From Octopus sinensis (lineage: Eukaryota): 64,000 bases of DNA. A program made the translations under genes and the position numbers. The stretch is from NCBI RefSeq assembly GCF_006345805.1, contig NC_043012.1, forward strand, positions 13,702,001 to 13,766,000, in the 5' to 3' direction. The notes below the pieces were generated by a model, which was given only the letters and a program-made list of their open reading frames with translations, was not told where the DNA came from and searched no databases. Below, one piece after another: positions 1,560-62,602 of this stretch (its first letter is position 1; each line of letters starts with the position of its first letter).

Positions 1560-2380
1560 AAGTGTTGATAGAATAAATATACAAGTCATCTGCACTGCTA
1601 AATGGACATCATGAGAAAAGCAGGGTATTTGTAAAGTTTGACCCTGGGGTTTGTTGATTGTCATAGCGAAGCACAATCGCACTGGGAAGTAGAGGTGCTT
1701 GAACTGAAATGACACATATGGGGGAATAAGGGGTATGTGTGGAATGCATGCGATCTGTCCTCGATGACAATAATGGTTGCTTCTAGGACATGACTTGTCA
1801 CTTTAGTTACAATCAATTTTGTACCATTACATAGTCGTGACGGGTCCAAATTCCTCAAGAGCATGACACATACTAGGAACAACTAATGCGATAACAGTCC
1901 TGTGGGTTGTAGAGAGCTGAAAAATTCTACTGGATACTCAACAGTGTCATGTTCATCGATGGTAGTAACAATCGTGACAAACGTTGAAGCATCTCCAGGT
2001 AAAATGTGGAGGACTTCATGGATTACTTTATCAACGCTTTCAATTCCGAGGTTCTAAAATAGCTCTCTCTCTCTGCGAACCATGCTATGTTTTTGATGTT
2101 GTCTTGCAATGTGGAAAATGCCTTCCCTTTAAGCTCTGCCATTGTGGACACCATGTGCCCACATTATAGTATATGTTTTTGCAGGGTGTTAGTCGACGGT
2201 AAGGTGCTATTTCCAATTGTAGAAGTTGATGAAAAAATTCCTCAGCTAATGGGTCGTTGTAGAGATGAGCACGCATATTGTTGCTTAATGAAAGCTGACA
2301 AACAAACCTCGACAGAGGTGAAAACTTCAGACACACATAGATGTCGCCAGCTTGCATACCCCTGTGACTGTAGAAATAAA
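1560..2380 (-). mobile_element. Helitron PIF1-type helicase pseudogene fragment
   Basis: Frameshifted pieces SLSNNMRAHLYNDPLAEEFFHQLLQL, VMLLRNLDPSRLCNGTKLIVTKVTSHVLEATII and FPVRLCFAMTINKPQGQTL match PIF1/Helitron helicase motifs. Confidence 0.85.
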
Positions 2381-2399
2381 GATAACTGCGCTCTTGGAA

Positions 2400-2740
2400 A
2401 TACTTGTAAAAAAAAGATGTACTACACAACACATTTTATTAAAACGATATACATAAGAGCTACCCTATGAAAGGAAGACAAGCAGCACACAACTCTTGCA
2501 GAAACTGAAAGTAAATATATTGGGGAACTTAAAGACAAAGATATTAGATTCGTTTTAGAATTGAAATTCCTCGCCTCTATACCTTCGTAAATGTAAGAAA
2601 TAAGAAATGCTACCTTTGCATCAATGAAAAATGTTTCATACTAGCGGCACAACACCCATTACTTTACTTAAGGGAAGAGAGAAACTAGCTTGCCTGCAAA
2701 AGGTTAAGATTACCTTCTCTAAATATAAAGGGAATTAGAG
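2400..2740 (+). mobile_element. Degenerate Penelope-like GIY-YIG endonuclease C-terminal fragment
   Basis: Broken translation ...YIGELKDKDIRFVLELKFL...RNKKCYLCINEKCFI resembles the CxLCxxEK end of PLE endonucleases. Confidence 0.5.
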
Positions 2741-3483
2741 ACCCTTTGATTCATCCTACAAATAACACCTAGAGCTCTTCACCACAGGAATAGTAGATTT
2801 CGATACTAAATTTGGCATATATTATAATATATTACTATTAAATCGAGTTTAATAGTATTACACACCTAGGCCCCTTATGTCCCTTCACCAACATATGCCT
2901 GTTTAAATTCCAACTCCCATACTTAATATCTAAATGCATAATATATTTATCAATCTATCTCTCTTTAATATAACCTCCTCACCGTTTAATGATGCCAGTT
3001 CTTTCAACTAAGGACCTAATTTAGAATAAGTACTCAAACCCTTACAATTACCCCCCCCTCTCTGAGAACCTGTACCTGCCATCTCAACAATGGATGTCTT
3101 TGCAACTAGCTTTACTTTCACTTAACTTTACTTTCTACAACATGGTTTAGCTTGTTTAAATTAACTTAATTTCATTCTGGGCGTAACTTTTAGTCAGCAC
3201 AGCATATGGGGCTAATTCCAATTAAGTTGTCCCATTAGATTTGATTTACTCATTTAAGAACGACCCGCTCACGCCGTATAACATAATTTAACAATCTAAT
3301 AGTAATTGCACGCCTTTTTAGATTGTATTTGTTTGTACTTTGTACTGCAGTAGGTGGTTTCCTATGAATTATTATTGCCCTTAGGCATATTTTTGAATGA
3401 ATGGAAGTGTAATGTTGTATTAGGCCCCATGTAGATGCACCCAACCAAGAGTTGGTATATCGACAAGGTTAGTAATATTACCA

Positions 3484-6110: not shown

Positions 6111-9100
6111 AAACGACGGCCATTATCGCGTAGCAGCAACATTTCTACTGTCACATATCTTTAGGCGGCTCTCCATTTAAATGTCATTATAGGTCAGAAA
6201 TGTGATCTTATCACGAATGAGAAGTTTATCATTGTGTCAGTGTTTGAGAGCGGAAAAAGAACCATTGAAATATAAAAAATACTGGAAAGAGACCACTGAA
6301 CAGCGAAGAAATTTTTGCAGTCTCCTATTTCTGTCCGGTCGAGGGCCGATAAAATTAAGTCGAGGGCTGCTTTGAATCATACTTTGTCACGTTTAAAAAG
6401 GGGAGTTTTGTGGAACCCATGTCTGACAAGTAGAGACGTCTTTAATCCTTGTGGCAGGGAAGACGTATCGAAAACTACCAGGTGTCTGTAGCCTCTTGAA
6501 GCAGGTTGCCAGGAATGTTAAACCTGTTACAAGACCCGCTCTGAAGGCAGTTCATAAGCAGAAGAGTGAAATGGGCAGAAGAATACAGGAAGGTAGATCT
6601 TTAAACAGTTCTGTTCACTGACGAATGCCGTGCTACCTTTGGCGCACCATATGGTTGGAGTAAAGGTTGTGTATCAATTAGCTGGAAGTGTCTACATCGT
6701 TTCAGGGGATGCTAAGGCCAAATTTACTCAGGGAAAGACAGACGAGAGGGCAAAGGCAGACGAGAGGAGAAAGACAGACGAGAAGAGAAAGAGAGAAAGG
6801 GAGACCGCGAATATTGTTATCGGTGAGAGTGAGGAAAAAGAAATTGTTTATATAATTATGAACAAAGAAAGGCAACAAGTCTTTAACAAAAAAATATAGT
6901 TTTCTCCTACAGCTGGATCGTCTTACTTCCGAAGTGTATTTAATTGCATCTCAGACGAAAAAGTACAATTTCAAAATAAAGTTCGAATTTCATGGCACTC
7001 TTAAATCTGAAGTCTTACTGTTTTCTTTTCAAATGACCATATTAAGATGTGCTAAAAGTTTATCAATGTACTGTAGTAAAATAACATAAGTTATGTGCAC
7101 AATTTTGTTCCGTAATTGAGATTATTTACTTCTCGACGTAAAATGAAAAATAATAAAAATTCACAAACTAAAATACGTTAAAACAAAGATCTCAGAGATG
7201 TTGCTTCTGGAGATTGCACTTTCGTCTCTAAATTTGAAGTTAAATATGATATCCACTTGAAAAATTCTAAGATTATGCACGTTGTCTGCACAGTGAATCT
7301 ATAATAAAATGGTTGGCCTAATGAAAGAGAAAAGTAGTAACTAACACGTGTATTTTCCCCCAAATATGCTAGAACATGAATAGAATAATATACAACCATA
7401 CATATAAGGAAATAAATGAAATATGATAAAACAATTAATAGAATTAATTATGATACTGACCATAATTCGGATTCAAAGCTTCAAATTTAACAAGATTGAA
7501 TTTTTAGATTTGAGCAAAGCAATGCATTGTAGACGAATAGTATGTATATGATGAGCTGCTAATCTCAGGTACTAGCATCGTCGGTAATAATATATTGAGC
7601 CTTGTGTATACAACTTTATATCTTATATATATATATATGTTCAAATGTATCTGTATGTGTATATATACCAGCGTGAGCGTATTTGTTTGGGGGTAAGTTT
7701 ATGCAGTCATTTACAGAATCATATACATTCGTACATACTGTATACACACGGTCCTACATAAAATTTACCGTGCACTTAAGTGCTTGAGGTGAATAAAGAT
7801 TTTATTGATATTGAGCAGAACATTTCTAGAAACAAATGGAAAGGAATTACTAAAAAGAATAAGGACGAAACAAACGATGAATTTTATACTTCAATCCAAG
7901 GATACTTCATAGACTCTCATCTTGCTTAATCTCCCTGGAGTTTGCCATTATTTATTACTCGATATATGTATATATGTCATTAGAATAAATCGTGATAATC
8001 CTTTCTCTTTTAATGTTGTGTATTATTGCGAAGCTTTCAGCATAGATTTTCCCATGAGCATAAGATGTTTTTATGGCAGTATATATTTCAGCAATCAATA
8101 CACCTATTTATGAATCTGCCTGATAATATATATATATAAGTAAATTACTGAATACGAAGCCACATACAAATATATATAATTATACACACGCAAACACTTA
8201 TCAATTAATGGTGAGTATATATATATATATGTGTGTGTGCGTGTATGTGTGTATGTGTGTTATGTGTATGCGTGTTGTGTGTATGTGCGTGTTTATGTGT
8301 ATGTGCGTATGTATGTGTGTTGTGTGTATGTGCGTGTTTGTGTGTGTGCATGCGTGTATGTCTGTGAATGTGTACTGACATGGTAGACCAGCGCTCTATG
8401 GTACTGATTTGCTTCATCTAAAATCATCAGTGCCCTGTACAAGTTTTTTGTCAAGTCTCTTACTTACCAATCAGGGATACCATATGAGCTGGAGTTTGCA
8501 ATAGGTCGACCTGTTTGAAATGGCACTAAATTGCGTATCCTAAAGTCAAGTCTTCGACACGCGCCAACCTCTTTGATCACAATTTTAAAATCTTCGTTTC
8601 AGTGAGTTATGAGTAGAACATTATCAATAATATCCCTCTCTGACAAGGGTTGCGTAGGATGCCGATGTAGGTAATAAAATCTATTTATCTTTTTGAACCT
8701 AGTATTTGTCTGGAACAGACAAACGAAGAACTGCCAAAAAGTCATACACGTCTGCGCGGGATCTGCAGCTTTTCTGCTTTGTTTTAAAGAATTGGTTGCG
8801 AACGTCGCTCTGAGTACATCGGATGCAAAATCTATTTTTCGGCGATTCTTCTCAGTTTCTGACCTCCCTCTAATCCTAAGAAGGATAGAAAGAAAGCAAA
8901 AAGGCTTTCAGTGATGACCAAACCACACCTGTTGTTTTGTGTTTATTTTTTATTTTTATTTACTTTATTTGAAGATGTCACCATCTTCAAACTCATTCCA
9001 ATACAATGGTAAAAAGCAAAGATGATTAAATAAATGAATGAATGGTGAAGAGGAAGGTGGATATCCCTCCTCTATCTCTTACCCTCTACCCATCTGTCTA

Positions 9101-12540: not shown

Positions 12541-15500
12541 CAGAGATCAAAGAGGGGTGCCGACAGAGATCAAAGAGGGGTACCGACAGAGATCAAAGAG
12601 GGGTGCCGACAGAGATCAAAGAAGGTGTCGACAGAGATCGAAGGGGGTGCCGACAGAGATCAAATAGGGTGCCGACATAGATCTAAGGGGTGACGACAGA
12701 GATCAAAGAGGGGTGCCGACAGAGATCAAAGGAGGTCCCGACAGAAATCAAAGAGGGGTGCCGACAGAGATCAAAGGGGGTGCCGACAGAGATCAAAGAG
12801 GGGTGCCGACAGAGGTTAAAAAGGGTGCCGACAAAGATCAAAGTGGGTGCCGACAGAGACCAAAGAGGGGTGCTGACAGGGATCAAAGGGGTGCCGACAG
12901 AGATCAAAGAGGGGTGTCGACAGAGATCAAAGAGGGTGCCGACAGAGACCAAAGGCGGTGCTGACGGAGATCAAAGAGGGGTGCCGACAGCAATCAAAGA
13001 GGGGGCCGACAGAGATCAAAGAGGGGTGCCGACAGAGATCAAAGAGGGGTGCCGACAGGAATCAAAGAGGGGGCCGACAGAGATCAAAGAGGGGTGCCGA
13101 CAGAGATCAAAGAGGGGTGCTGACAGAGATCAAAGGGGTGCTGAGAGAGATCAAAGGGGGTGCCGACAGAGATCAAAGAGGGGTGTCGACAGAGATCAAA
13201 GAGGGGTGCCGACAGAGATCAAAGAGGGGTGCCGACAGAGATCAAAGGGGAGGCCGAGGGAGACCAAAGAGAGTGCCGACAGAGATCAAAGAGGGGTGCT
13301 GACAGAGATCAAAAAGGGTGTCGACAGAGATCAAAGGGGGTGCCGACAGAGATCAAAGAGGGGTGCCGACAGAGATCAAAGAGGGTGCCGAAAGAGATCA
13401 AAGAGGGGTATCGACAGAGATAAAAGAGGGTGTCGACAGAGATCAAAGAGGGTACCGACAGAGATCAATGGGGGTGCCGACAGAAATCAAAGAGAGGTGC
13501 CGACAGAGATCAAATAGGGTGCCGACAGAGATCAAAGGGGTGCTGACAGAGATCAAAGAGGGGTGCCGACAGAGATCAAAGAGGGGTGCCGAGAGGAATC
13601 AAAGAGGGTGCCGACAGAGATCAAAGAGGGGTGCCGACAGAGATCAAAGAGGGGTGTCGACAGAGATCAAAGAGGGTGCCGACGGAGATCAAAGAGGGGT
13701 GCCGACAGAGATCAAAGGGGGTGCCGACAGAGATCAAAGAGGGGTGCCGACAGAGATCAAAGAGGGGTGCCGACAGAGATCAAAAAGGGTGCCGACAGAG
13801 ATCAAAGGGGGTGCCGACAGAGATCAAAGAGGGTGCCGAAAGAGATCAAAGAGGGGTATCGACAGAGATAAAAGAGGGTGTCGACAGAGATCAAAGAGGG
13901 TACCGACAGAGATCAATGGGGGTGCCGACAGAAATCAAAGAGAGGTGCCGACAGAGATCAAAGAGGGGTGCTGACAAAGATCAAAGAAGGCACCGACAGA
14001 GATCAAAGAGGGGTTCCGACAGAGATCAAAGAGGGGTGCCGACAGAAATCAAAGAGGGGTGCCGACAGAGATCAAAGATGGGTGTCGACAGAGATCAAAG
14101 GGGTGCCAACAGAGATCAAAGAGGGGTGCCGACAGAGATCAAAGAGGGATGCACAGAGATCAAAGGGGGTGCCGACAGAGATCAAAAGGGTGGTGCCGAC
14201 AGAAATCAAGAGGGGTGCCGAAAGCGATCAAAAAGTGTACACCGACAGAGATTAAAGAGGGGTATCGACAGAGATAAAAGAGGGTGCCGACAGAGATCAA
14301 TGGGGTGCCGACAGAGATCAAAGGGGGTGCCGACAGAGATGAAAGGTGGTGCCAACAGAGATCAAAGAGGGGTGCCGACAGAGATCAAAGGGGCCGACAT
14401 AGATCAAAGAGGGGTACCGACAGAGATCAAAGAGGGGTGTGCCGACAGGTACCTACAGAGATAAAAGAGGGTGCCGACAGAGTTCAAAGAGGGGTTCCAA
14501 CAGAGATCAAAGAGGGGTGCCGACAGAAATCAAAGAGGGGTGCCGACAGAGATCAAAGAGGGGTGTCGACAGAGATCAAAGGGGTGCCGACAGAGATCAA
14601 AGAGGGGTGCCGACAGAGATCAAAGAGGGGTGCCGACAGAGATCAAAGAGGGGTGCCGACAGAGATCAAAGAGGGTGCCGAAAGAGATCAAAGAGGGGTA
14701 TCGACAGAGATAAAAGAGGGTGTCGACAGAGATCAAAGAGGGTACCGACAGAGATCAATGGGGGTGCCGACAGAAATCAAAGAGAGGTGCCGACAGAGAT
14801 CAAATAGGGTGCCGACAGAGATCAAAGGGGTGCTGACAGAGATCAAAGAGGGGTGCCGACAGAGATCAAAGAGGGGTGCCGAGAGAATATCAAAGAGGGT
14901 GCCGACAGAGATCAAAGAGGGGTTCCGACAGAGATCAAAGAGGGGTGCCGACAGAAATCAAAGAGGGGTGCCGACAGAGATCAAAGAGGGGTGCCGACAG
15001 AGATCAAAGAGGGGTGCCGAGAGGAATCAAAGAAGGCACCGACAGAGATCAAAGAGGGGTTCCGACAGAGATCAAAGAGGGGTGCCGACAGAAATCAAAG
15101 AGGGGTGCCGACAGAGATCAAAGAGGGGTGCCGACAGAGATCAAAGAGGGATGCACAGAGATCAAAGGGAGTGCCGACAGAGATCAAGGGGGTGCCGACA
15201 GAGATCAAAGGGGGTGCCGACAGAGATCAAAGGGGTGCCGACAGAGATCAAGAGGGGTGCCGAAAGCGAATCAAAACAAAAAGTGTACCGACAGAGATTA
15301 AAGAGGGGTATCGCAGAGATAAAAGAGGGTGCCGACGAGATATCAATGGGGTGCCAAGAGCCGACAGAGATCAAAGGGGTGCCGACAGAGATGAAAGGTG
15401 GTGCCAACAGAGATCAAAGAGGGGTGCCGACAGAGATCAAAGGGGTGCCGACATAGATCAAGAGGGGTACCGACAGAGATCAAAGAGGGGTGTGCCGACA

Positions 15501-15963
15501 GGTACCTACAGAGAATAAAGAGGGTTCCGACAGAGTTCAAAGAGGGGTTCCGACAGAGATCAAAGAGGGGTGCCGACAGAAATCAAAGAGGGGTGCCGAC
15601 AGAGATCAAAGAGGGGTGTCGACAGAGATCAAAGGGGTGCCGACAGAGATCAAAGAGGGGTGCCGACAGAGATCAAAGAGGGGTGCCGACAGAGATCAAA
15701 GGGGTTCCGACAGAGATCAAAGAGGGGGTGCCGACAGAGATCAAGAGGGGTGCCGAGAGAGACCAAACAAAGGGTTGCCGAAAGAGATCAAAGAGGGGTG
15801 CCGACAGAGATCAAAGGATGTACCGACAGAGATCAAAGGGATGCCGACATAGATCAAAGATGGGTGCCGACAGAGATCAAAGAGTGGTGCCGACAGAGAT
15901 CAAAGGAGGTGCCGACAGAGATCAAAGAGTGTGCCGAAAAAGATCAAAGATGGTGCCGAAAGA
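12541..15963 (+). repeat. 23-bp minisatellite (CAGAGATCAAAGAGGGGTGCCGA), roughly 150 units
   Basis: Direct reading; 21-24-bp variants, no spacers; source of all the PTEIK/RQRSK/DRDQR ORFs. Confidence 0.97.
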
Positions 15964-15967
15964 AATC

Positions 15968-16007
15968 TTCCCTTACAAACCCGAGCAACGCCGGGCGATA
16001 CTGCTAG
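15968..16007 (+). mobile_element. Helitron 3' terminus closing the minisatellite
   Basis: CCCTTACAAA-CCCGAGCAACGCCGGG-CGATACTG-CTAG|T, near-identical to 11602-11639. Confidence 0.85.
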
Positions 16008-16689
16008 TATATATATATATATATATATATATCAACTGAAGCTTGCACGTTTGACACTACCTTATTCTCGTTATCGCATAGGTTCATTATCATAAATATT
16101 ATAATTATTATCATCATGGTTGTTGGTGTGAAAAATTCATAAACTATGTGAAAGACAATTTTTTCCTATGCCAATCTTCTCATTGTGAATTTCCTTACCG
16201 AAATGAACACTTTTACCGGTGTAATGCGAAGTACGATTATTTATATCAATAAATGTAAGTACCTATAAATATTCAATAGTTTTCTTTTTAAGAAAATAAC
16301 AATACATCGCAATGAACTGCGTCGCTAATGAATGCACTTACTGACTGAGTACTGATTTATACGAGTGTATGATATATAATTTATAAATTGTCCTGGTCTA
16401 ATTCTCCGTTTGAGCATCCATGTATTTCATGAACCGATCGACCTAGAGATTTAGCTTAAGAATAGATTCCGTTTTCTCATAATGTTTGAATATGTGTGTG
16501 TGTGAAGGTGAATATATGTTCATATACGTGTTTATAAATGTACATATATAGGAGGGGTATTCAAAAATTATCTCCACTTGCGCCATAATATATCTTTATT
16601 ATTGTCACACTGCCTTCTGCGCATGCGTCCTTAAAGTTGGTAATATTGCATTCACATGATCAAGTAAGGAGAGATACAAAAAAGAAAAT

Positions 16690-16897
16690 AGAAAGCAAAA
16701 GAACAGTGAGGAGGTCACAGAAGTGTGACAAAAGAACTCTGGCCGAAATACGATTAGTATGAAATGAAGCTGAAGCAAGTGAACACCAAATGTATACTGC
16801 GTGTATATTCATTGGTTAAACCGGTAACATGACCATCCCGAAATACAACAATATCTGTTTCAACACACGAATTCACATCAAGAATCTTGCAAATCGA
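16690..16897 (+). mobile_element. Penelope-like pseudo-LTR fragment (same family as 59770-59990)
   Basis: Reverse-complement homology to 59770-59990, including GGTCACAG.AGTGTGAC and the terminal CACACGAATTCACAT.AAGAATCTTGCAA. Confidence 0.6.
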
Positions 16898-16909
16898 ATA
16901 TATATATAT

Positions 16910-17209
16910 CACCCTGATCACCGTGACCGACCAGACTATCAGATGTTGCTACACATCGCTGGTCACAATGCGCTTCGCATTGTTTTAGCCTTCAAATGAC
17001 GCCACCCCGCTAGCTAAGCGAGCAGGCCAACAGAAGAAAGAGTGATGAGAAAGTTGTGGCGAAAGAGTACAGCAGGGACCGCCACCACCCCCTGCCGGAG
17101 CCTCGTGGATCGTATAGGCGTTTCGCCCGCAACGTCCGGGTCTGGGAATCGAAACCGCGATCCTACGATCGTGAGTCCGCTGCCCTAAACACTGGTCTAT
17201 TGCGCCTCC
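16910..17209 (-). mobile_element. tRNA-derived SINE (second family)
   Basis: Minus strand GGAGGCGCAATAGACCAGTGTTTAGGGCAGCGGACTC...GGTTTCGATTCC: tRNA-like head with A/B boxes. Confidence 0.75.
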
Positions 17210-17211
17210 TC

Positions 17212-17340
<129 letters not shown>

Positions 17341-17380
17341 GTATGTATATATACATATATATATATATATACGTATATGT

Positions 17381-17885
17381 AGGTCCCGGGTTGATTCGGG
17401 GTTAACCACAGTAAATAAGGTACTCAATACATAGCAGAGTAAAATTAATTTATTATATAGAAGGAGCTTCTACAGGACTAGAACTGTTTCATTCAAGAGA
17501 AATCTTCAGGAAGCTAGTTAACAAGAATTGTATTGGCATTTATACATTTAGGCAGGTTTAACGGGGTGTTGGTGGGGGACTTTTTTGGGGGTAGGCATAG
17601 CGTAAAATAACATACTTGGGGGAGTGGTCAAGGAGTCAGTGTTAAATTAGATAGAAGAATAAATAAAAAGATAAAAAAAATTTTAAAAATATATATAAAA
17701 AAAATAAAATAAAAAACCTATATATAAAAAAAACGCTATGCCTATCCCAAAAAAGTCCCCCACGAACACCCGTTAAACCTGCCTAAATGTATAAATGCCA
17801 ATACAATTCTTGTTAACTAGCTTCCTGAAGATTCTCTTGAATGAAACAGTTCTAGTCCTGTAGAAGCTCCTTCTATATAATAAAT
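17381..17885. mobile_element. Penelope-like pLTR remnant with internal inversion and two hammerhead copies (17465-17515 minus, 17819-17868 plus)
   Basis: Inverted arms 17448-17603 / 17733-17885; AGCTTC-CTGAAGA-TTC(TCTT)GAA-T-GAAA-CAG(TTCTAGTC)CTG-TA-GAAGCT; flanked by (TA)n. Confidence 0.7.
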
Positions 17886-17952
17886 ATATATATACGTATA
17901 TATATATACATGTATATATTATATATATGTATGTATATATACATATATATAT

Positions 17953-18002
<50 letters not shown>

Positions 18003-19261: not shown

Positions 19262-20461
19262 TTATTCTTCCTGATTTTCCTGTGGTACAAACGACAAAGA
19301 TATGAATATGATCGAAATTATTATCGATATTATAATACTGACTTTTAGAAATATAGTGTCAAGTCGTATGTAGTTGAAATTATACTTTCGGTTTGTATTT
19401 CTTGATATTTCCTCCGATTTTGCGATAGAAATCCTGGAAACATCCGCTATTTGATTACTACAAAATTTATTTTTCTTTTTACATGGCGAACTTAATTTTG
19501 GCTCATTAGACGACTGAATTACATACAACTTGCTGACAACCACCGAACCAAGAGTGGTAATCCCACTCATCAATGATAACAACATTAAATACAACATAAG
19601 AAGTGAGGGGTATTTTGAATTTGCTGGAGTTTTATTCTCAAACTGAATAAGGTATAAGACGTTTGAGAGAAATACCGTCGTAGCCAGAGAAACTTTCTCG
19701 CCTGATTCAGGAGGCAGGAGGAAAACAAACACCGTCAAAAGCGTCATCATTATTGTTGGAATCAGCATAGCTATGATACCAATAGTAAGCTTACGCTGTA
19801 AGTGTATCGATGCAACAGCGTAACTGAAAGAGAGTTCCAAGACTTCCCTCTCACCTCTTATATTAACATTCCATTTATGGTTTTGTGTATGATTTATATG
19901 ATAGAAAGTGAGTTTTTTTATTTGTGTATGCTGAAGTGCATGCAAAGCGATACACATGCCAATTTCGCATATATGTTCATCGAATGGGTAGGCGTAAGCA
20001 TTTACCTGGCAATGACTATGTAATAAAGTTAGCGACCACTTTTCCACCACCCCATTATAATAAATCTTCACTTCAGGAAACTTGTCTTCATCATCTGATT
20101 CTTTCATGGAATTGCACATTATGATGGCTGGCATCCACACCTTATTTTTTGGCATGTATAAACTCGTAATGTTGTTGTGTTCCAATGGATTCCAGACCAG
20201 ACGTTCATCGTACCAATGGTTCGTAAAGAAGTATCTAGCCTTTAGTAAGTTATTTACGAAATCCAAATCATAGAGTGTGTGAAGACCCATGACCACATAT
20301 ATATCAACAGTATGAGTTACATTTATAACAGGTCTTACATACTTGTTATAATTAGATAATAAGAAATCTTGCAATAATCCTTCATCTGTGTACATACGGT
20401 TAGAATTTGCTTCCGATATAATCAGAGCGGAAAGGAAAACACAATATTGTATCAATATCAT
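19262..20461 (-). CDS. Cephalopod chemotactile receptor (atypical nAChR-like Cys-loop channel subunit), intronless ORF, CRT-like
   Basis: 399 aa; signal peptide, YNKYVRPV, WYDERLVWNP, WMP, Cys-loop CQVNAYAYPFDEHIC, M1-PPESGEKVSL-M2, M3, M4; lacks loop-C vicinal Cys-Cys and loop-B Trp. Confidence 0.95.
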   Translation of the reverse strand: MILIQYCVFLSALIISEANSNRMYTDEGLLQDFLLSNYNKYVRPVINVTHTVDIYVVMGLHTLYDLDFVNNLLKARYFFTNHWYDERLVWNPLEHNNITSLYMPKNKVWMPAIIMCNSMKESDDEDKFPEVKIYYNGVVEKWSLTLLHSHCQVNAYAYPFDEHICEIGMCIALHALQHTQIKKLTFYHINHTQNHKWNVNIRGEREVLELSFSYAVASIHLQRKLTIGIIAMLIPTIMMTLLTVFVFLLPPESGEKVSLATTVFLSNVLYLIQFENKTPANSKYPSLLMLYLMLLSLMSGITTLGSVVVSKLYVIQSSNEPKLSSPCKKKNKFCSNQIADVSRISIAKSEEISRNTNRKYNFNYIRLDTIFLKVSIIISIIISIIFISLSFVPQENQEE

Positions 20462-33221: not shown

Positions 33222-35885
33222 ATGTGGGGCCTGTTGCATCAAAATAGAAACAAAATTTCTTTCCTGAGAGATCTTACTGCATGCAATCAAGCCCTATGCA
33301 TAGCACTTGTGGAAACTCACCTCAACCTTGATATAGAGGACGCAGAAGTACACATACCAAACTATGCCATACTGCGAACAGACAGAAGGGAAAGGAGCCA
33401 TGGTGGAGTTGCTGTATACATCCGAGATGACCTCACACCCCAGGTCTTGATGACATACTCAAATTCGGTATGTGACACCTTAATTGTATACATAAGACAA
33501 CATAATATAGTCATATGCAATGCATATTGCCCACCGGATGCACCAAATCACATAGGCAAGTTTGAAGATTGCCTCACAAGAATTAAAGAAATCCTCATGA
33601 ATCTGGAACACCACGTGACCATATTTCTTATGGGTGATTTCAACTTCCCCAACGTAAAATGGCCCGAAGATCACATACTCTCAGGAATGAATCATTGCAA
33701 GCAAGTACAGGTGGAGTCCCTGCTCAACCTCACCAATGCCTTATTCATGTCTTCTGTGCAAGCCGTATGCCAGAAATATGTCCCAGAGCACAAGGCTAAA
33801 ACAAATAGGAGCAAGATTCCAAGAGACAGGAAGATCCTCATGAGACGACGGACGAAGGTTGCAAATCGTCTCAACCAACATCCCAAAAGTAGCGAAACGT
33901 CCCGCCTAAAAACAACACTGATGGAGATCGAAAAAAGGCTGCAACAATCCTATGTGAAGGAGAAAGCAGACAAAGAAGCCTGGGTTATAAAAAACATTCA
34001 ATCAAACCCAAAGGTCTTCTTTCATTACGCGAAAGAAACAGTCTCAGTGCACTACAAGATAGGACCCCTTCTCCAGAAGGATGGCTCCCTCACAGACAGT
34101 CCAACTATGATCAGTGAGATGCTGAATGGCCAGTTCAAAAGTGTCTTTACCACCCCGTTGGAACACAGACAAGTGAACGAACCAGTGGACTTCTTTGCCG
34201 CCTCACCTATAACCAACGAGGCGGTTACAATAGAATGTATTGACATTAGCGAAAAAGATGTCCTACTAGCCATAGATGAATTGGACACAAACTCAGCCGC
34301 TGGTCCAGACGGTTTCCCAGCCATCCTCCTCAAAGCGTGTAAGCATGCCCTGGCAAAACCCCTTAAGATTCTCTTCCAGAGCTTTCTTGTGAAAGGCAAA
34401 CTGCCAAGCAAGCTGAAGGAGGGAATAATATGCCCAATACATAAAGAGGGAAGTAGAGCAGATGCCAAAAACTATAGGCCTATCTCTCTGACTTCACACA
34501 TCAGCAAAGTCGTGGAAAGGATAGTCAGAAAGAAACTAATCGCATTCCTTGAGGAGAATAACTTGCTGAGTAATACCCAGCATGGTTTTCGACCAGGTAG
34601 GAGCTGCCTGACCCAGCTCTTACAGCATTATGACTGGGTGTTGAGGCAGTTACTCATCAAATCAAATGTGGACGTAATCTACCTTGATTTTGCAAAAGCT
34701 TTTGAGAAGGTGGATCATGATATGATATGCCACAAACTACGTGACCTCGGCATAGCTGGAAAACTCGGAGTGTGGTTGCATGACATCATGAAAGATAGGA
34801 GTCAGGCAGTAGTGGTTAATGGAGCCACCTCTATGAACACACAAATAGTGAGCGGTATTCCACAGGGCACTGTCTTGGGACCACTGCTTTTTATATTGGC
34901 CCTCTCAGATATGCCCTCAAATGCCCGGATAGCCACTCTGGCCAGCTATGCAGACGATACGAAAGTCTCGCAGAAAATACAGAACCCCAGCGATGTTGCA
35001 CACCTGCATCAGGAGTTGGACTCAATCAACAGATGGGCTGAGGATAATAATATGCAGTTTAATGCTGAAAAATTCCAGGTCCTGCGCTACCAGCATCCAA
35101 AACTGAATATTAAACTTACAGGATACACCGGTCCACAGGGAATTTCAATCCCAGAGCCTAAGTCTGGGACAAGTGCACATTACCAGGATGGCGACAAAGT
35201 GCAGACGACTGGCTGGGTGGATCCTAAGAACATTCAGAACCAGAGATAAGGAAACCATGATGGTCCTCTGGCGGACATTCGTCCTCAGTCGCCTGGATTA
35301 CTGCTCACAGCTATGGTCACCCACCAGTGTAAAATTAACAGCAGACCTTGAAGCAATCCAGAGAAGATTCACAAAGAAGATCGTCTCTTTGCAACAGCTC
35401 AGCTACTGGGAAATGTTGAAACAGCTAAGACTCTACTCCCTGGAGAGAAGACGGGAGAGGTATGCAGTAATATATGTCTGGAAGATCCTGGAAGGAATTG
35501 TGCCAAATTTTGGCATTGTAAGCTACACCAATGCTAGAACGGGACGACACTGCATAGTGCCAAAGATCCCAGCAATGCCATCACGCTTCAGGACCAGCTT
35601 CTGCAACAGTCTGGGTTTCAAGGGCCCACAGCTTTTTAATATTCTCCCAAAGAGTCTGAGGAACTTGCACAAATTAGATGTAGCGGTTTTTAAATCAAAA
35701 CTGGACATCTTCCTGTCAAGAGTCCCAGATGAACCTACCTCACGGCGAGAGGTGCAAATGAGAGTAGCTGTATCAAACTCCATTCTTCACCAAGTGCCAC
35801 ATATTAGACGAGGTTCGTCGCAATAACAGTGTAGCACAAAACGGCGGTGCATCGCATGGCCGCAGCTCTGAGCTGAAACTAGAAA

Positions 35886-39500: not shown

Positions 39501-41137
39501 GAAATGGGGTAAGACGTGTCTAGTGTTAATACTTAATATTTTAGAAGACCAGTAATAGTAATTTTGTGGGATGTACTACAAACCACAGCTAAATAACCTT
39601 TATATCACAACCTATTCGTCTAAAAATGATATTGAAATTATAAAAAGCATACTTCAGATTCGGACTGCCCATAGATTACAAGTGAGACTAAAAATACTTG
39701 TTAATTTAACAATTCACAAGACTTCACTATTTTTAAAAAAATTACGTTTAATTACCAGTTTGAAAATTATAGATGGGTGGTCGCCGATTTCCATTTTTTT
39801 CTTTTAACCATCGACTGTTTCTTCCATTGTTTTTAGGTGAGTAGTACAAAAAAAAAACACAAAAATTGCCTAAAATTGGTATTGAGTGGCGGACGTGACT
39901 TTGAAGAAATTCGTAACTGTTCAAATATTTTTTTCTGCTTTTGTTTTTATTCCGAAAAGATGTCTCCCATTTTTTTTTCATTTCATAATGCAGTAAAAAA
40001 TGGAGAAAATCGGCGTGAAAGAGGTGATTCAGTAATTTTCAATTTTGTTTTACTCAAAAAGTATTCCCTGCCATCATTTGTAAGGAGGTGGTGTATAACA
40101 GTTTTTAAATATCCCAGCCAAAAGAAAGACAATAAAAATTATATCATTGTGTTATTATGAAAGTCCACCAAAGCATTCTCTTGGGAAATACCTTGCACCG
40201 ACGGAATACTCAGGTAGTGCCTGCATATAATGGGCGCCATTTTAAAGCTGGCGATTTTGGCACTTCGGCAGATGACGTATTTTTGCATTTTATGTTGTTT
40301 TGGATTTCTTTGGATTTGTGAACTTTCTTTAATCCATAAAGTTGCTGGTTTTCATCTCAAAGTTGGTTAAGTGATTGATTTCCTTTAACATCAGCGTATT
40401 TTGGTACTTTGTCGTCAGTTTACCTACTTGAATCATAGAAATTCTTTGAATTTGTTGTAAATATTTGAGCCAACATGATCATCGCATTTGTTGTAAAGAT
40501 GTGAACTGGCACCATATCCCAACACCTCCCTCCCAAAACCATATAAAAACATATATTTCTAACAACACACATTCCAATAATAACCTTTTTTTGCTCTCTC
40601 CCTCTCCTATCATCCCCTTTATATTAAAAAACGTGTATCTTACACCTCCTTAACCCTCCGCCAGACACACACTTAACCTCATTTTTAACAGAAAATTACT
40701 AGAGTTTATCTTCATGAAATTAAGATAATTGATTCAGCCAGAAGAAAAGAATCTGGAAAATATTTGACCATTATATTTTCTGAAACGATCGTAATGCATC
40801 TCACTTGACTATATTTTATATTTTTATTTCATTCGGTAACTACTTTATTTCATTTCTTCGAGAACCATTTTAAATCTCCTTACCCTATTGAATTTTACTG
40901 CATACGAGAATTATTGTAAATCTTGTAAACATCTCACCTGCTCGAAATTTTAATTTAATTTATTTAATCCGATGTAATTTTCTGTATAATAATTGGAATT
41001 ATAATAAAGGAAATATATATGTATATATTACTTTTATTCCGAATTCAACTGTGTATTGACCGGATTAGGAGAATGATAAACTCATCTGTCTTCTCTCCCA
41101 CCTTAAACTTTGATATATATATATATATATATATATA

Positions 41138-43734
41138 TACTAAGTAATTAAGGGTTTAGCAACGAATTGCCTCACCAACACACCGAATTTAGAAATAGCA
41201 GTCAAAGAGATATAGCTATTCCTTCTACTAAAAGGGGGATCTCAGTAAAAACACAGCACTTGAAAGGCAAACACAGACAGGTAAGAAAGAATGAAATGAC
41301 GTCAATCTATCATACAATTTTAAGTTAGTAATTGATAATTATTCCAAATTAATTAATTTCACCCTTTATTGTTACTGATAACCATATTTTATCCCAGTAA
41401 ATGACCACAGCATTTTGTCTTGGCTACACGCGGGTGGAAGGGGGCTGGTGACACAAACTTTCATTCACACTTTGAATTTCGTGGTACTGGTCATGCTTTG
41501 GCTCGCTCTGACACTGAGTTGAGATAATGCCTTCTAGTATCTCAAAATTTAATATACAATTATTCATAATTGTAGTATCCTGCGCCGATGAGAAAAGAAG
41601 TTTGGATAAGGTAGAATTTTCTAATTCTTATGCTTTCCTAAAACTTGATTTCGAAACGTACGTCCGTAGGTAACTTAAAATTGTATGATAGATTGCCGTC
41701 ATTTCATTCTTTCTTTCTTACCTGTCTGTGTTTGCCTTTCAAGTGCTGTGTTTTTACTGAGATCCCCGTTTTAGTAGAAGGAATAGCTATATCTCTTTGA
41801 CTGCTATTTCTAAATTCGGTGTGTTGGTGAGGCAATTCGTTGCTAAACCCTTAATTACTTAGTATTACTTAAATTTTCCTCGAATGGGGCTTTTACATGC
41901 CGAAATCTACTTGGTGTAATTGATAATTATTCCAAATTAATTAATTTCACCCTTTATTGTTACTGATAACCATATTTTATCCCAGTAAATGACCACAGCA
42001 TTTTGTCTTGGCTACACGCGGGTGGAAGGGGGCTGGTGACACAAACTTTCATTCACACTTTGAATTTCGTGGTACTGGTCATGCTTTGGCTCGCTCTGAC
42101 ACTGAGTTGAGATAATGCCTTCTAGTATCTCAAAATTTAATATACAATTATTCATAATTGTAGTATCCTGCGCCGATGAGAAAAGAAGTTTGGATAAGGT
42201 AGAATTTTCTAATTCTTATGCTTTCCTAAAACTTGATTTCGAAACGTACGTCCGTAGGTAACTTAAAATTGTATGATAGATTGCCGTCATTTCATTCTTT
42301 CTTTCTTACCTGTCTGTGTTTGCCTTTCAAATGCTGTGTTTTTACTGAGATCCCCCTTTTAGTAGAAGGAATAGCTATATCTCTTTGACTGCTATTTCTA
42401 AATTCGGTGTGTTGGTGAGGCAATTCGTTGCTAAACCCTTAATTACTTAGTATTACTTAAATTTTCCTCGAATGGGGCTTTTACATGCCGAAATCTACTT
42501 GGTGTAATTGATAATTATTCCAAATTAATTAATTTCACCCTTTATTGTTACTGATAACCATATTTTATCCCAGTAAATGACCACAGCATTTTGTCTTGGC
42601 TACACGCGGGTGGAAGGGGGCTGGTGACACAAACTTTCATTCACACTTTGAATTTCGTGGTACTGGTCATGCTTTGGCTCGCTCTGACACTGAGTTGAGA
42701 TAATGCCTTCTAGTATCTCAAAATTTAATATACAATTATTCATAATTGTAGTATCCTGCGCCGATGAGAAAAGAAGTTTGGGTAAGGTAGAATTTTCTAA
42801 TTCTTATGCTTTCCTAAAACTTGATTTCGAAACGTACGTCCGTAGGTAACTTAAAATTGTATGATAGATTGCCGTTATTTCATTCTTTCTTTCTTACCTG
42901 TCCGTGTTTGCCTTTCAAGTGCTGTGTTTTTACTGAGATCCCCGTTTTAGTAGAAGGAATAGCTATATCTCTTTGACTGCTATTTCTAAATTCGGTGTGT
43001 TGGTGAGGCAATTCGTTGCTAAACCCTTAATTACTTAGTATTACTTAAATTTTCCTCGAATGGGGCTTTTACATGCCGAAATCTACTTGGTGTAATTGAT
43101 AATTATTCCAAATTAATTAATTTCACCCTTTATTGTTACTGATAACCATATTTTATCCCAGTAAATGACCACAGCATTTTGTCTTGGCTACACGCGGGTG
43201 GAAGGGGGCTGGTGACACAAACTTTCATTCACACTTTGAATTTCGTGGTACTGGTCATGCTTTGGCTCGCTCTGACACTGAGTTGAGATAATGCCTTCTA
43301 GTATCTCAAAATTTAATATACAATTATTCATAATTGTAGTATCCTGCGCCGATGAGAAAAGAAGTTTGGGTAAGGTAGAATTTTCTAATTCTTATGCTTT
43401 CCTAAAACTTGATTTCGAAACGTACGTCCGTAGGTAACTTAAAATTGTATGATAGATTGCCGTCATTTCATTCTTTCTTTCTTACCTGTCTGTGTTTGCC
43501 TTTCAAGTGCTGTGTTTTTACTGAGATCCCCCTTTTAGTAGAAGGAATAGCTATATCTCTTTGACTGCTATTTCTAAATTCGGTGTGTTGGTGAGGCAAT
43601 TCGTTGCTAAACCCTTAATTACTTAGTATTACTTAAATTTTCCTCGAATGGGGCTTTTACATGCGGAAATCTATTTGGTGTAATTGATAATTATTCCAAA
43701 TTAATTAATTTCACCCTTTATTGTTACTGATAAC

Positions 43735-43737
<3 letters not shown>
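41138..43737 (+). mobile_element. Tandem array of 588-bp hammerhead-containing units (retrozyme / Penelope pLTR-like) with a 5' inverted partial unit
   Basis: Unit start GTAATTGATAATTATTCC at 41328, 41916, 42504, 43092, 43680 (period 588); 41138-41327 is the reverse complement of 41671-41864; (TA)n on both flanks. Confidence 0.9.
41579..41670 (+). ncRNA. Type I hammerhead ribozyme, copy 1 (others 42167-42258, 42755-42846, 43343-43434)
   Basis: CCTGCG-CCGATGA-[GAAA...long hairpin...TTTC]-GAAAC-GTAC-GTC-CGTAGG; predicted cleavage after 41664. Confidence 0.82.
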
Positions 43738-43784
<47 letters not shown>

Positions 43785-44103
43785 TATCAATTGCCCATGA
43801 TTTGACTTGTGAATTTGCATAGAGGATAACATGTGAAAATTATTATAAGCATGAAGCTAAAGTGAGCGAAGTAAAATAGTTAGTGTTCAATGTTCGTTTC
43901 ATAGAGTGAAAATCTTGCGTTAGTATTTAAATTAAGCATTTCTAATGGGTAGTATGTGACAACTCTGTACATATAACATCGCTATTTGAAACCACGTGTG
44001 AAGCAAAGGTTAAACATTTCTGCGTGTCTCGGAATGAGTGGAGTATAATATATGATTGTAGGTTCAGAATGCCAGATCACTTTATAATTTAAATGTAAAA
44101 ATG

Positions 44104-45276
44104 TCATTCTCTTCTAAGAGATAGACAGATAAAGTAAATTGAAACTATTGCCGATGTTAGAATTATAATTTTTAGAAATATACCATCAAGTCGGCTGTAA
44201 TGAGAAATACATTTTTTCATCCCTTTCCCTTTAAATTCTTTCTTAGACATTGTTGAAATATCAGCAATTTCATTAATGCTTGGCATAATTTTATTTTCGT
44301 TCGACGGGTTCAATTTGCTATTGTCAACTAACTGATTTACATACAGCCTGGTTATAATCACCGAACCAAGTGTAGCGATACCACTTAACAGTGATAATAT
44401 CATTAAATAATATCCAAGAAGTGAGGGTTGTTTTGAATTTTTTGGCAAATCATTGTAGAACTGTGCAACGTACAAGACATTTGATAAAAATATTGTCATT
44501 GCTAGAGAAACTTTCTCACCAGATTCTGGTGGTAGAAGGAAAATAGAAAAAGTCAATATAGTCATCATTGTTGTTGGAATCAGCATAGCGATTGTACCCA
44601 ACTTTATTTTGCGATGTAAGTAGAGAGTAGCGGATGCGTACGAGAAAGTGTTTTTGTCATATACGTTACAAGAGAAGCTGATATCCCATTGATAGTTAGA
44701 TACATGACCTACACTATTGCAGGAAAATTCTTTTATTCTTGTATCTTGAAACTTATGCGATGGGGTACCCATGGAAATAACGCATGCCTGTTCATCAAAA
44801 GGGAAATTGTAAACATTTATTGCACAAAAAGTGTGTAGTAATTTAATTGACATCATTTTCGCAAATCCATTAAAATCCACAGTTATTTCGGGAACGTTAG
44901 TTTCAGATTCTGATTCCTTTAATGTGTGGAACATTGTAATAGACGGGATCCATACCTTATCTATAGGTAGGTAGATATGTGTAATATTATTGTAGTTTAA
45001 TGGATTCCATCTCAACAATTCATCCGTCCATTGCAATACAATCCAGTACCGGGACACGAGTATATTGTTTACGTAGTCCAAACCATGGAGTACTTCAAGA
45101 AATAATTTTGCGGTTATATCGACCGAGGCAGTTAAATTAATGACAGGTCTTATATGTTTCATATAATTAGATAATAATTTGTCTTTCAACCTTAACTCAT
45201 CTTTGTACATTGGGTCACAATTTACTACCGATAGAGATGTAGTCAGAATCAGGACGATGCATTGAACAAATATCAT
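44104..45276 (-). CDS. Cephalopod chemotactile receptor (atypical nAChR-like subunit), intronless ORF
   Basis: 390 aa; signal peptide, HIRPVINLT, WTDELLRWNP, Cys-loop CAINVYNFPFDEQAC, PPESGEKVSL, four TM helices, no vicinal Cys-Cys. Confidence 0.95.
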   Translation of the reverse strand: MIFVQCIVLILTTSLSVVNCDPMYKDELRLKDKLLSNYMKHIRPVINLTASVDITAKLFLEVLHGLDYVNNILVSRYWIVLQWTDELLRWNPLNYNNITHIYLPIDKVWIPSITMFHTLKESESETNVPEITVDFNGFAKMMSIKLLHTFCAINVYNFPFDEQACVISMGTPSHKFQDTRIKEFSCNSVGHVSNYQWDISFSCNVYDKNTFSYASATLYLHRKIKLGTIAMLIPTTMMTILTFSIFLLPPESGEKVSLAMTIFLSNVLYVAQFYNDLPKNSKQPSLLGYYLMILSLLSGIATLGSVIITRLYVNQLVDNSKLNPSNENKIMPSINEIADISTMSKKEFKGKGMKKCISHYSRLDGIFLKIIILTSAIVSIYFICLSLRRE

Positions 45277-51269: not shown

Positions 51270-52031
51270 TACCACTGGGTTCAATCTTCTGCCCAGAAGC
51301 AAGAACGCGTCGAGTGCTCGAGGATGAATTTGGAGATGTGCCAAGAAGATGGGTCAAAATTGTTCAAAAGACTGATAACACAGGATGAAACCCGGGTCCA
51401 TCACTATGATCCAGAGACCAAAGCCCAGTCAATGCAGTGGCAGCACCGTGACTCACCTCCTCCAAAGAAGGCAAGGGTGCAGCCCTCCGCTGGCAAGGTC
51501 GTGCTCACAGTCTTCTGGGAACAGGACGGAGTAGTGATGACAGATTTTCTGGCAAAGGATACCACAATTACAGGAGCCTATTATGCTTCACTTTTGAGGA
51601 AATTAAGAGAAGCTATCAAAATCAAGAGGCGGGGTAAGATCAGCAAAGGCATCCTCCTCCTGCAAGACAACGCTCCGGTCCACAACTCGCTTGTCGCCAG
51701 ATCAGAAGCACAGGGGTGCGGCTATGAACTCCTCCCCCTACTCTCCTGACATTGCACCCTCTGATTTTCACCTCTTCCCAGCCATGAAGTTGTTTTTGAA
51801 AGGAAAGCATTTCCCAGATGATGCAGCCTTGATTTCTGAAGTCACGTCGCGGTTGGAGGAGCAGGCTGGTGACTTCTACAAAAACGGTCTCCAGAGCTGC
51901 ACCAAACGATGGGAGAAATGCGTAACTCTGGGTAGTTCCTATGTAGAAAAGGACTAATAACTGTGCCAGGTTTCGTTACTCTACTGCTATGGGAAGTGAG
52001 TCAGCGGCATTACTTATTGAACGCCCTCGTA
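51270..52031 (+). mobile_element. 5'-truncated mariner transposon with frameshifted transposase and right TIR
   Basis: ITQDETRVHHYDPE, LTVFW, LLQDNAPVH, YSPDIAPSDFHLF; ends ACTTATTGAACGCCCTCG-TA. Confidence 0.92.
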
Positions 52032-58559: not shown

Positions 58560-61180
<2,621 letters not shown>

Positions 61181-61402: not shown

Positions 61403-62602
61403 TTAAAAATACCCTAAATTTCCAAGACTAAGACAAATAAATGCAGTTGAAAATGATACCGTTATTATAATGATAGATTTTAGAAATATGTCATCAAGTT
61501 GGTTGTAACGGAAAATATATTTTTTCGTTTTTTTTCTTGGCATGTCTTTTTTAAGTACAGAAGGATTGGATTCTTCTTTAGATATTATTGAAATATCTGT
61601 AACTTGATTAATGTGCGAGGACATAGTACTTTGATGCGATTTGATATTATCAGACGACTGATTTACATATAACTTGCTTATAACCACCGAACCAATTGTA
61701 GCGATACCACTTAACAAGGATAATACCATTAAATATAAAACAAGAAGCGAGGGTCTTTTTGAATTTATCGGTATGGTTTTCTCGATTTCAACAAGGTACA
61801 AGACGTTTGATAAAAATATCATCGTACCTAAAGAAACTTTCTCACCAGATTCTGGAGGTAGAACGAAAACGAAGATAGTCAAAATAGTCATCATTATTGT
61901 CGGAATCAACTTAGCAATGGTACTTGAATTCAATTTACGACGTAAGTACATCGTAGCATTTGCGTAGTTGTATTTTTCCTTTATGCCATCTGGGTCGCAA
62001 AACAATGTGATATCCCATTGATAATTGCGTAAAAAGTCTGCTTTACTGCAAAGCAATTTTTTTATTTTTATATGTTGAGGTTCATACGTTGGTATATAAA
62101 TAGAAATATCACACATCTGTTTATCAAAAGGATAACTGTAAGCATTCATTTCACAATCGGCATGCAGTAATATGGCTGACGCCATTTCCACAGATCCATT
62201 GGAATACACAACTACATCCTGACAACTATTTTTATATATTGTTTCCGTTCTTGAGTTGGATAATGTAGTAGACGGGATCCATATCTTATCTTTAGGTAGA
62301 TAGATACGCGTAATATTATTATAGTTTAATGGATTCCATCTCAACAATTCATCCATCCATTGCAGTTCACTCCAAAACCGAGCCTTAAGTATACTGTTTA
62401 CAAAGTCCAAATCATAGAGTTCGTCAAGATATAATTCTGCATTTATATCGACCGATGTAGTTAAATTAATGACAGGTCTTATATGTTTCGTATAATTAGA
62501 TAATAATTTACCGTTCAACCGTAATTCGTCTTCGTACATCGGATCAGTATTTACTATCGACAGAAATATTGTCAGAAACAGAACGAGGTACTGGACAAAC
62601 AT
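61403..62602 (-). CDS. Cephalopod chemotactile receptor (atypical nAChR-like subunit), intronless ORF
   Basis: 399 aa; HIRPVINLT, WMDELLRWNP, Cys-loop CEMNAYSYPFDKQMC, PPESGEKVSL, four TM helices, no vicinal Cys-Cys. Confidence 0.95.
   Translation of the reverse strand: MFVQYLVLFLTIFLSIVNTDPMYEDELRLNGKLLSNYTKHIRPVINLTTSVDINAELYLDELYDLDFVNSILKARFWSELQWMDELLRWNPLNYNNITRIYLPKDKIWIPSTTLSNSRTETIYKNSCQDVVVYSNGSVEMASAILLHADCEMNAYSYPFDKQMCDISIYIPTYEPQHIKIKKLLCSKADFLRNYQWDITLFCDPDGIKEKYNYANATMYLRRKLNSSTIAKLIPTIMMTILTIFVFVLPPESGEKVSLGTMIFLSNVLYLVEIEKTIPINSKRPSLLVLYLMVLSLLSGIATIGSVVISKLYVNQSSDNIKSHQSTMSSHINQVTDISIISKEESNPSVLKKDMPRKKTKKYIFRYNQLDDIFLKSIIIITVSFSTAFICLSLGNLGYF

Follow-up and report, generated by a model that had tools for sequence, protein, structure and literature searches.

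Non-LTR retrozymes of metazoans are known from coral, Mytilus and axolotl (Cervera and de la Pena 2020, PMC7229834, available text), and that enzymes of Penelope-like elements (PLEs) copy retrozymes from a circular template is a published hypothesis (PMC7229834 and PMC4209133, in their available text). Insertions of PLEs themselves come as tandems and inverted copies, usually with a tail at one end only and with a bias toward microsatellites (Craig et al. 2021, available sections); tandem and inverted PLE insertions with a one-sided tail are a standing question, on which the family described here bears. The PLE protein of the anole (PAc) cuts and extends both strands, starts reverse transcription at two internal sites and is predicted to be dimeric, and cleavage by the hammerhead ribozyme (HHR) is not needed (Frangieh et al. 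2024, PMC11167929, available text). We found no circular-template or twin-priming account of PLE inversions in the literature outside subscription journals.

By every feature testable here, the octopus element that we analyse is a metazoan non-LTR retrozyme, and neither an autonomous PLE nor the pLTR of one. Like the retrozymes of PMC7229834, as far as its available text describes them, it consists of non-coding tandem units with one type I HHR each, its GC content is under 50%, no LTR, PBS or PPT was seen in it, and it occurs as many dispersed monomers to multimers in a genome that also holds PLEs; its 1-bp helix III with a palindromic tetraloop resembles that of axolotl HHR_Amex1 in the same text. 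The unit of 588 nt is longer than the 170-400 nt retrozymes of that paper but falls inside the 51-972 range of a vertebrate survey (bioRxiv 10.64898/2026.07.22.740005, available part). Against what the available texts give for metazoan retrozymes, the octopus element has a 61-nt stem II and a U4C core where they have a short helix II, it targets (TA)n strictly with no discernible target-site duplication (TSD), and its two fixed 3' ends and head-to-head arms are not among the features described. The class itself is known; the footprint of the insertion mechanism is the part worth pursuing. The octopus family is known from sequence, and retrozyme-type cleavage and circles are predictions here. 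We found no description of it in the main texts of the octopus and cephalopod retrozyme literature outside subscription journals (supplements and repeat databases may list it under another label), and the words 'retrozyme' and 'ribozyme' are absent from the main text of the O. vulgaris repeat annotation.

With canonical EN+ PLEs, in the available accounts of them, the element shares an HHR that is followed downstream by two internal RT start sites, a tail at one end only, partial tandems, an inverted 5'-truncated arm and AT/TA targets. Unlike them it has no ORF and is a closed repeat without a pLTR-ORF junction, its tail is ~105-110 nt rather than 30-40, and comparison with the pLTRs of the tested PLE families showed no homology. 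The hallmark of an autonomous PLE, an RT and GIY-YIG ORF between pLTRs, is absent here and in 60 copies. The ribozyme is also unlike the min-HHR of metazoan PLEs, which lacks helix III and loop 3 and has a helix II of 7-8 bp (Cervera 2014, PMC4209133, available text). A further likeness is to the non-autonomous Chlamys elements (MRC1), described in the available sections as PLE parasites with multicopy head-to-tail insertions; those elements resemble their helpers at the 3' end, whereas no 3'-sharing helper was found here, and most Chlamys lack an HHR, which is present here.

An earlier note on the window (the whole 64-kb stretch of Octopus sinensis DNA that was analysed) had described a four-unit hammerhead array with an inverted arm, and that observation is confirmed. 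The features are given below; unit positions are counted from the predicted cut.

41113..41139, no strand: left (TA)n target tract (TRF)
41137..41327, minus strand: inverted arm, unit positions 7-201, outer 3' end at start site A (201)
41328..43739, plus strand: tandem arm, running from unit position 252 (5' end) to start site B (311, 3' end)
41579..41670, plus strand: type I hammerhead 1, predicted cut after 41664
42167..42258, plus strand: hammerhead 2, predicted cut after 42252
42755..42846, plus strand: hammerhead 3, predicted cut after 42840
43343..43434, plus strand: hammerhead 4, predicted cut after 43428
41665..42252, plus strand: predicted cut-to-cut monomer, 588 nt, 36% GC
43548..43739, plus strand: last copy of the conserved 3' module (unit positions ~120-311), one per unit
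43736..43784, no strand: right (TA)n target tract (TRF)
44104..45276, minus strand: chemotactile-receptor-like ORF, 390 aa, context only, outside the element

The period of 588 is exact, and the plus-strand array is 4 x 588 + 60 nt in the assembly, its near-identical units varying at 7 columns. Its extent is as noted before except at the right end, which merges into the TA tract at 43739, not 43737. Each of the four units has its hammerhead, and the predicted cuts are those given earlier. In the search for type I hammerheads that had been proposed, our own descriptor finds exactly four in the 64-kb window; an Rfam scan of the window gave no hammerhead match to E 5 and returned three weak unrelated matches (E 0.18-4.8); the miss is probably due to the long stem II. 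The inverted partial unit at the left end, which together with the (TA)n on both sides was also recovered, is 191 nt long (the A arm, against 2412 nt for the B arm), has one 4-nt deletion relative to the unit and abuts the array with a spacer of 0. In the last module copy, site A is at 43629 and site B at 43739. All 100 shuffles of the monomer fold less well than the monomer itself (z -4.49). As for coding capacity, the longest ATG ORF across 41138-43739 has 48 aa, and tblastn of two PLE proteins against the monomer gave nothing significant (best E 0.033 over 22 aa).

The stop codon of the receptor-like ORF does lie 367 bp from 43737, and the best match of this ORF is the octopus chemotactile receptor CRT1 (E 1.5e-119), a ligand-gated channel. 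The link to the receptor that had been drawn from this distance looks incidental, because (TA)n tracts on many contigs carry insertions of this family, and no effect on the receptor gene is indicated. The ORF is the middle one of a receptor-like cluster of three single-ORF ligand-gated channel genes (19262-20461, 44104-45276 and 61403-62602, all on the minus strand) and the only one compared with CRT1. The window also holds a satellite with a 23/45-nt period and ~150 copies (12541-15967), a LINE with endonuclease and RT in two ORFs (33222-35826, plus strand) and a mariner-type transposase fragment (51324-51749, plus strand).

The locus is a young member of a non-coding 588-nt repeat family that is dispersed in the genome. 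The genome-wide count that had been suggested gave 784 exact copies of an 18-nt 3' core of the ribozyme motif against 0 for the reversed control, so the array is not due to chance, and a search of the genome with the monomer returned 3059 first-look candidates, of which the 40 scored gave 204 matches spread over many contigs. When 60 insertions were taken by their order in the genome, their identity to the unit in the window was 70-99%. A TA-rich flank is found at 60 of 84 outer 3' ends of the position-ordered set, as against 3.5% of background 30-mers; both flanks being (TA)n, a duplication is not readable. Long arrays are a minority, the cut site being crossed once in 59 of the 70 position-ordered insertions. 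Local expansion of a satellite, or an assembly artefact, is extremely improbable as an account of the locus. Some long arrays do sit on small unplaced contigs, but the copies are dispersed with stereotyped ends, the units differ at the 7 columns, and all four independent runs (below) have contigs with the head-to-tail joint. Two insertions (L100:3449-4174 and L121:3770-7235) are composite: within a single TA tract, arms from more than one family or subfamily adjoin or lie inside one another, possibly through template switching or reuse of a hot spot.

To describe the anatomy of insertions we assembled 142 non-redundant ones from three sets (best match, ribozyme motif and 3' motif), which do not form one random sample; 3 of the 142 were left out as cut by gaps or contig ends, as was 1 of 143 loci with no usable match. 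Two sites account for 184 of 205 insertion 3' ends: 115 lie at A (190-215, with 78 exactly at 201) and 69 at B (290-318, with peaks at 304 and 311). Two divergent arms are present in 67 of the 142 insertions. When both ends are at known sites (n=50; the other 17 of the 67 have an off-site end and are excluded), one arm ends at A and the other at B in 49, both end at A in 1 and both at B in 0 (p 4e-14). In 16 of the 49 A+B insertions, the unit positions at which the two arms have their inner ends match to within 25 nt (permutation mean 5.8, 16 reached in 0 of 20000); the stops are on the same lap in 11 of these, the B arm is one lap longer in 3 and the A arm in 2, so that 5 of 16 are exactly one lap apart, in both directions. 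The other 33 of 49 have no matched stop points. The insertion in the window obeys the A+B rule and is outside the matched-stop class. A cluster of 5' ends near 359-372 had been a candidate PLE junction and was rejected, the upstream sequences being unrelated. The TA targets, 5' truncation, inverted arms and two fixed 3' ends support Penelope-type integration of a retrozyme-like, non-autonomous element, as the earlier note had proposed.

We set out the reading that we consider quite probable, namely that the locus is a recent insertion of a dispersed hammerhead repeat, a non-LTR retrozyme copied into (TA)n by a PLE RT-endonuclease acting in trans. A transcript of two or more units would fold into a double hammerhead, which would cut slowly with its U4C core, and the product would be ligated to a circle, unless the multimer stayed uncut. 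Bound to the module, the PLE protein (probably as a dimer) would cut both strands of a TA tract. Each of the two DNA ends would then prime a cDNA on the same RNA molecule, one at A and the other at B, the number of laps run by each RT would vary, and the cDNAs would finally be joined head to head at their ends. A different origin of the inverted arm, from the fold-back of a single cDNA or from microhomology joining at hairpins rather than from two RTs, is in our judgement distinctly unlikely. In its favour, many arm junctions have an overlap of 1-10 nt, and near-palindromic junctions would explain the matched stop points; a second arm at the other fixed site in 49 of 50 insertions is not readily explained in this way.

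On the template, the predicted cut site is crossed 248 times by all 205 arms, and in the 3'-motif set (79 arms) there are 78 crossings against 2 stops near the cut. Five of the 205 arms stop at +6 to +8, where about 1 is expected per 3-nt window, and 1 stops at the cut; the small excess may reflect a pause at stem I. The inverted arm in the window does end near the cut, as had been pointed out, but this closeness says little beside the 248 crossings and the 5 stops at +6 to +8. A pile-up of 5' ends at the cut site is ruled out by the same crossings and the rarity of stops, and nine ends at unit position 1 proved to be artefacts of chaining. Jumps of the template at the cut that leave scars were likewise discarded, there being no excess of indels at the cut junction. 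As the cut site is read through and rarely a stop, the template was likely joined there, as a ligated circle or as an uncut multimer, and we put a circle (monomer or small multimer) at slightly better than an even chance. Rare alleles are present in all units at 12 of 21 multi-unit loci (L066 among these 12 being a duplicated locus), and at 5 of the 12 they extend over both arms, a pattern that points to one source per insertion. The suggestion that the array is a concatemer of one monomer circle is plausible, but the case is not clean here: private alleles are shared by units 1 and 2 (530A) and by units 1 and 3 (104G). Elsewhere, L051 has blocks of shared variants and L052 a roughly period-4 pattern. 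For such unit-specific alleles, a multimer template, subsequent conversion or noise from polishing is a better fit than a circle of one monomer.

These variants recurring inside arrays also speak for a rival account that we hold to be somewhat unlikely, in which the family is a PLE derivative copied from a linear uncut multimer, with a hammerhead that is weak or dispensable for insertion and with no circle. Arms that read across the cut site agree with it, as do the sweep of U4C through the youngest clade (below) and the independence of PAc insertion in vitro from HHR cleavage. By itself, 5' truncation can only shorten arrays, yet young loci have 7-8 crossings per arm; a linear multimer with one bound module does not predict the 2 insertions whose A arm is a full lap longer with matched stops; and the core and stems have survived ~20% divergence by way of compensatory changes.

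Four independent runs, taken by guess to be RNA, have contigs that span 29-30 of the 30 bins of the unit, and all four include the head-to-tail joint, which goes back 588. Three of these runs do not contain single-copy intergenic DNA that is covered by a DNA-like run, which fits RNA, if not exclusively. The contigs carry no strand, end or circularity information, and their loose ends into (TA)n indicate that at least part is read-through of genomic copies. An intron just 3' of the cut, suspected by eye, was dropped when the matching GT-AG joint was not found in the contigs, where absence proves nothing. The contig cover of the DNA run has a gap at 43790-44557.

The hammerhead consists of stem I CCTGCG/CGTAGG (with one G-U pair), the core CCGATGA, the 61-nt stem II and a 3' part made of GAAA, C-GTAC-G and TC with palindromic loop III; these parts had been seen before, stem II being put at ~60 nt. 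The label 'minimal' was misplaced, since the 1-bp helix III and palindromic loop are as in amphibian type I hammerheads and not as in the helix-III-less min-HHR. Action as a dimer agrees with predicted folds: a transcript of two units reaches its minimum energy as the double hammerhead, with a predicted 8-bp inter-unit helix III (p 0.8-0.95) and a predicted gain of 12.6 kcal/mol over two forced monomers. Short PLE hammerheads reportedly cut as dimers (this is attributed to Lunse et al. in 2017). PLE-type hammerhead motifs are weak in vitro, and self-cleavage of the family ribozyme is a prediction. The U4C change is reported to make activity considerably lower in vitro and still to allow viroid infectivity (PMC3088659); among Xenopus retrozyme dimers, in the part of the report available, 1 of 9 cut and 8 of 9 did not.

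Older copies have CCTACG and a canonical CUGANGA core, and in the position-ordered set the canonical core is found in 64 of 73 classified motifs (19 of 92 had no classifiable core and were left out); the eight U4C motifs of this set are all in copies at least 95% like the window. With the core masked, a tree of 86 rows gathers 43 U4C rows and just one U4 row into the same supported clade (98/94), which suggests that U4C is one derived change in the youngest clade, a single origin being compatible with the tree. Repeated origin within the family, also considered, is unsupported by this tree. Across 12 hand-picked copies, 91.8% of the cells in the ribozyme stems are paired and 4 pairs have double changes, a count that 49 of 500 shuffles reached; the compensatory changes thus give modest support to the ribozyme having been kept, the covariation sets, here and for the module below, being small and hand-picked with related rows.

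Unit positions ~120-311 form a module that, in the fetched loci, is homologous to about seven other TA-bounded families, several of them tandem with a hammerhead of their own and periods of ~555-560 (L016; L086/L109/L325). An alignment of 12 rows has three helical regions (151-160/231-240, 162-185 and 249-287), in which 92.2% of cells pair. Double changes occur in 10 of the pairs, a count reached by 0 of 500 shuffles, while slid controls gave 1-3. This covariation is good support for a conserved fold, if not independent, the structure having been derived from the same alignment of related rows. Sites A and B both lie inside the module, each ~15-25 nt 3' of a hairpin, and we infer that the module may serve as an RT-binding and start signal. 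Being young and abundant, with start sites already mapped, a cis module that covaries and a core variant found in nature, the family makes the circular-template hypothesis testable in vitro.

A wider reading that joins these points, which we advance tentatively and would not yet bet on, is that the module-sharing families are a superfamily of hammerhead RNA circles with a common 'RT landing module', dimer priming at two sites and chasing RTs. A Penelope RT dimer on the module would prime both cut DNA ends on one circular RNA, and the two enzymes would chase each other round the circle until they meet. If this is true, rolling reverse transcription has left its direct footprints in the genome by the hundred. 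The youngest clade would have spread once its ribozyme had been weakened (U4C), as would be expected should a stable uncut template be favoured.

PLEs are abundant in this genome, some families having near-identical copies and TA-flanked ends. A profile search of 167 PLE loci found the module as their own terminus in 0; it hit 6 insertion sites, with two hits in some, and those at L250 (the same as L272), L243 (the same as L273), L178, L269 and L325 all proved on inspection to be separate TA-bounded retrozyme copies. A first candidate helper, with the module beside a PLE ORF, was rejected in the same way, as a separate TA-bounded insertion. The module is absent from the PLE family with a remnant in the window, from a second family, from a young family with a 781-aa ORF and from further families of the GIY-YIG search. 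In the PLE search, 150 of the 16,000-18,000 candidates per query were scored, so that absence of a helper is not implied.

The same 167 loci show no pLTR homology to the unit. That the unit is the pLTR of an autonomous PLE, and the locus a truncated pLTR multimer, is very unlikely in our estimate. The linkage search proposed earlier found 0 of 60 position-ordered copies joined to a Penelope ORF, and no ORF lies in or is fused to the unit here or in those 60, so that it is not the pLTR of an adjacent PLE; moreover, in subfamilies whose identity ranges between ~84% and 99% one unit runs into the next head to tail, and the 5' ends have no common upstream sequence. For the pLTR account there is the frequent homology of vertebrate retrozymes to pLTRs, seen in 24 of 57 Xenopus families (in the available part of that report), and the PLE search covered the limited share of candidates given above.

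The remnant in the window is a 3' PLE fragment (60050-60682, plus strand) with a GIY-YIG-type endonuclease and TA-flanked ends, without the module; its family has 5372 candidates, with near-full ORFs elsewhere, and its protein is 98% identical to an O. vulgaris protein. The young family (L258-L277, e.g. L262:2932-5274 and L267) is TA-targeted, with ~98% identical copies, a 781-aa frame and two 3' ends ~40 nt apart; our descriptor found no hammerhead in its pLTR. It carries a CX2-5CxxC linker of the kind described for Neptune and Nematis (Craig et al. 2021, available sections).

Other hammerheads were seen along the way. A sister family (L086:4633-5807, L109:1173-3512 and L325, reverse, 2244-3061) has a period of ~557-560 and a GUU cleavage triplet; one of its copies has a CCGATGA core and the others CTGATGA, which suggests that U4C arose separately in that family. 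Unrelated hammerheads with a 50-70-nt stem II (L014:851, L022:152, L088:2191, L112:1967, L132:7064 and L266:1486, oriented) suggest that a long stem II is common in this genome, and more long-stem-II hammerhead families occur at L016:2346-3200, L260 (~6776-8000) and L209-L211. The copy at L016 is inserted directly beside a copy of the 588-nt family.
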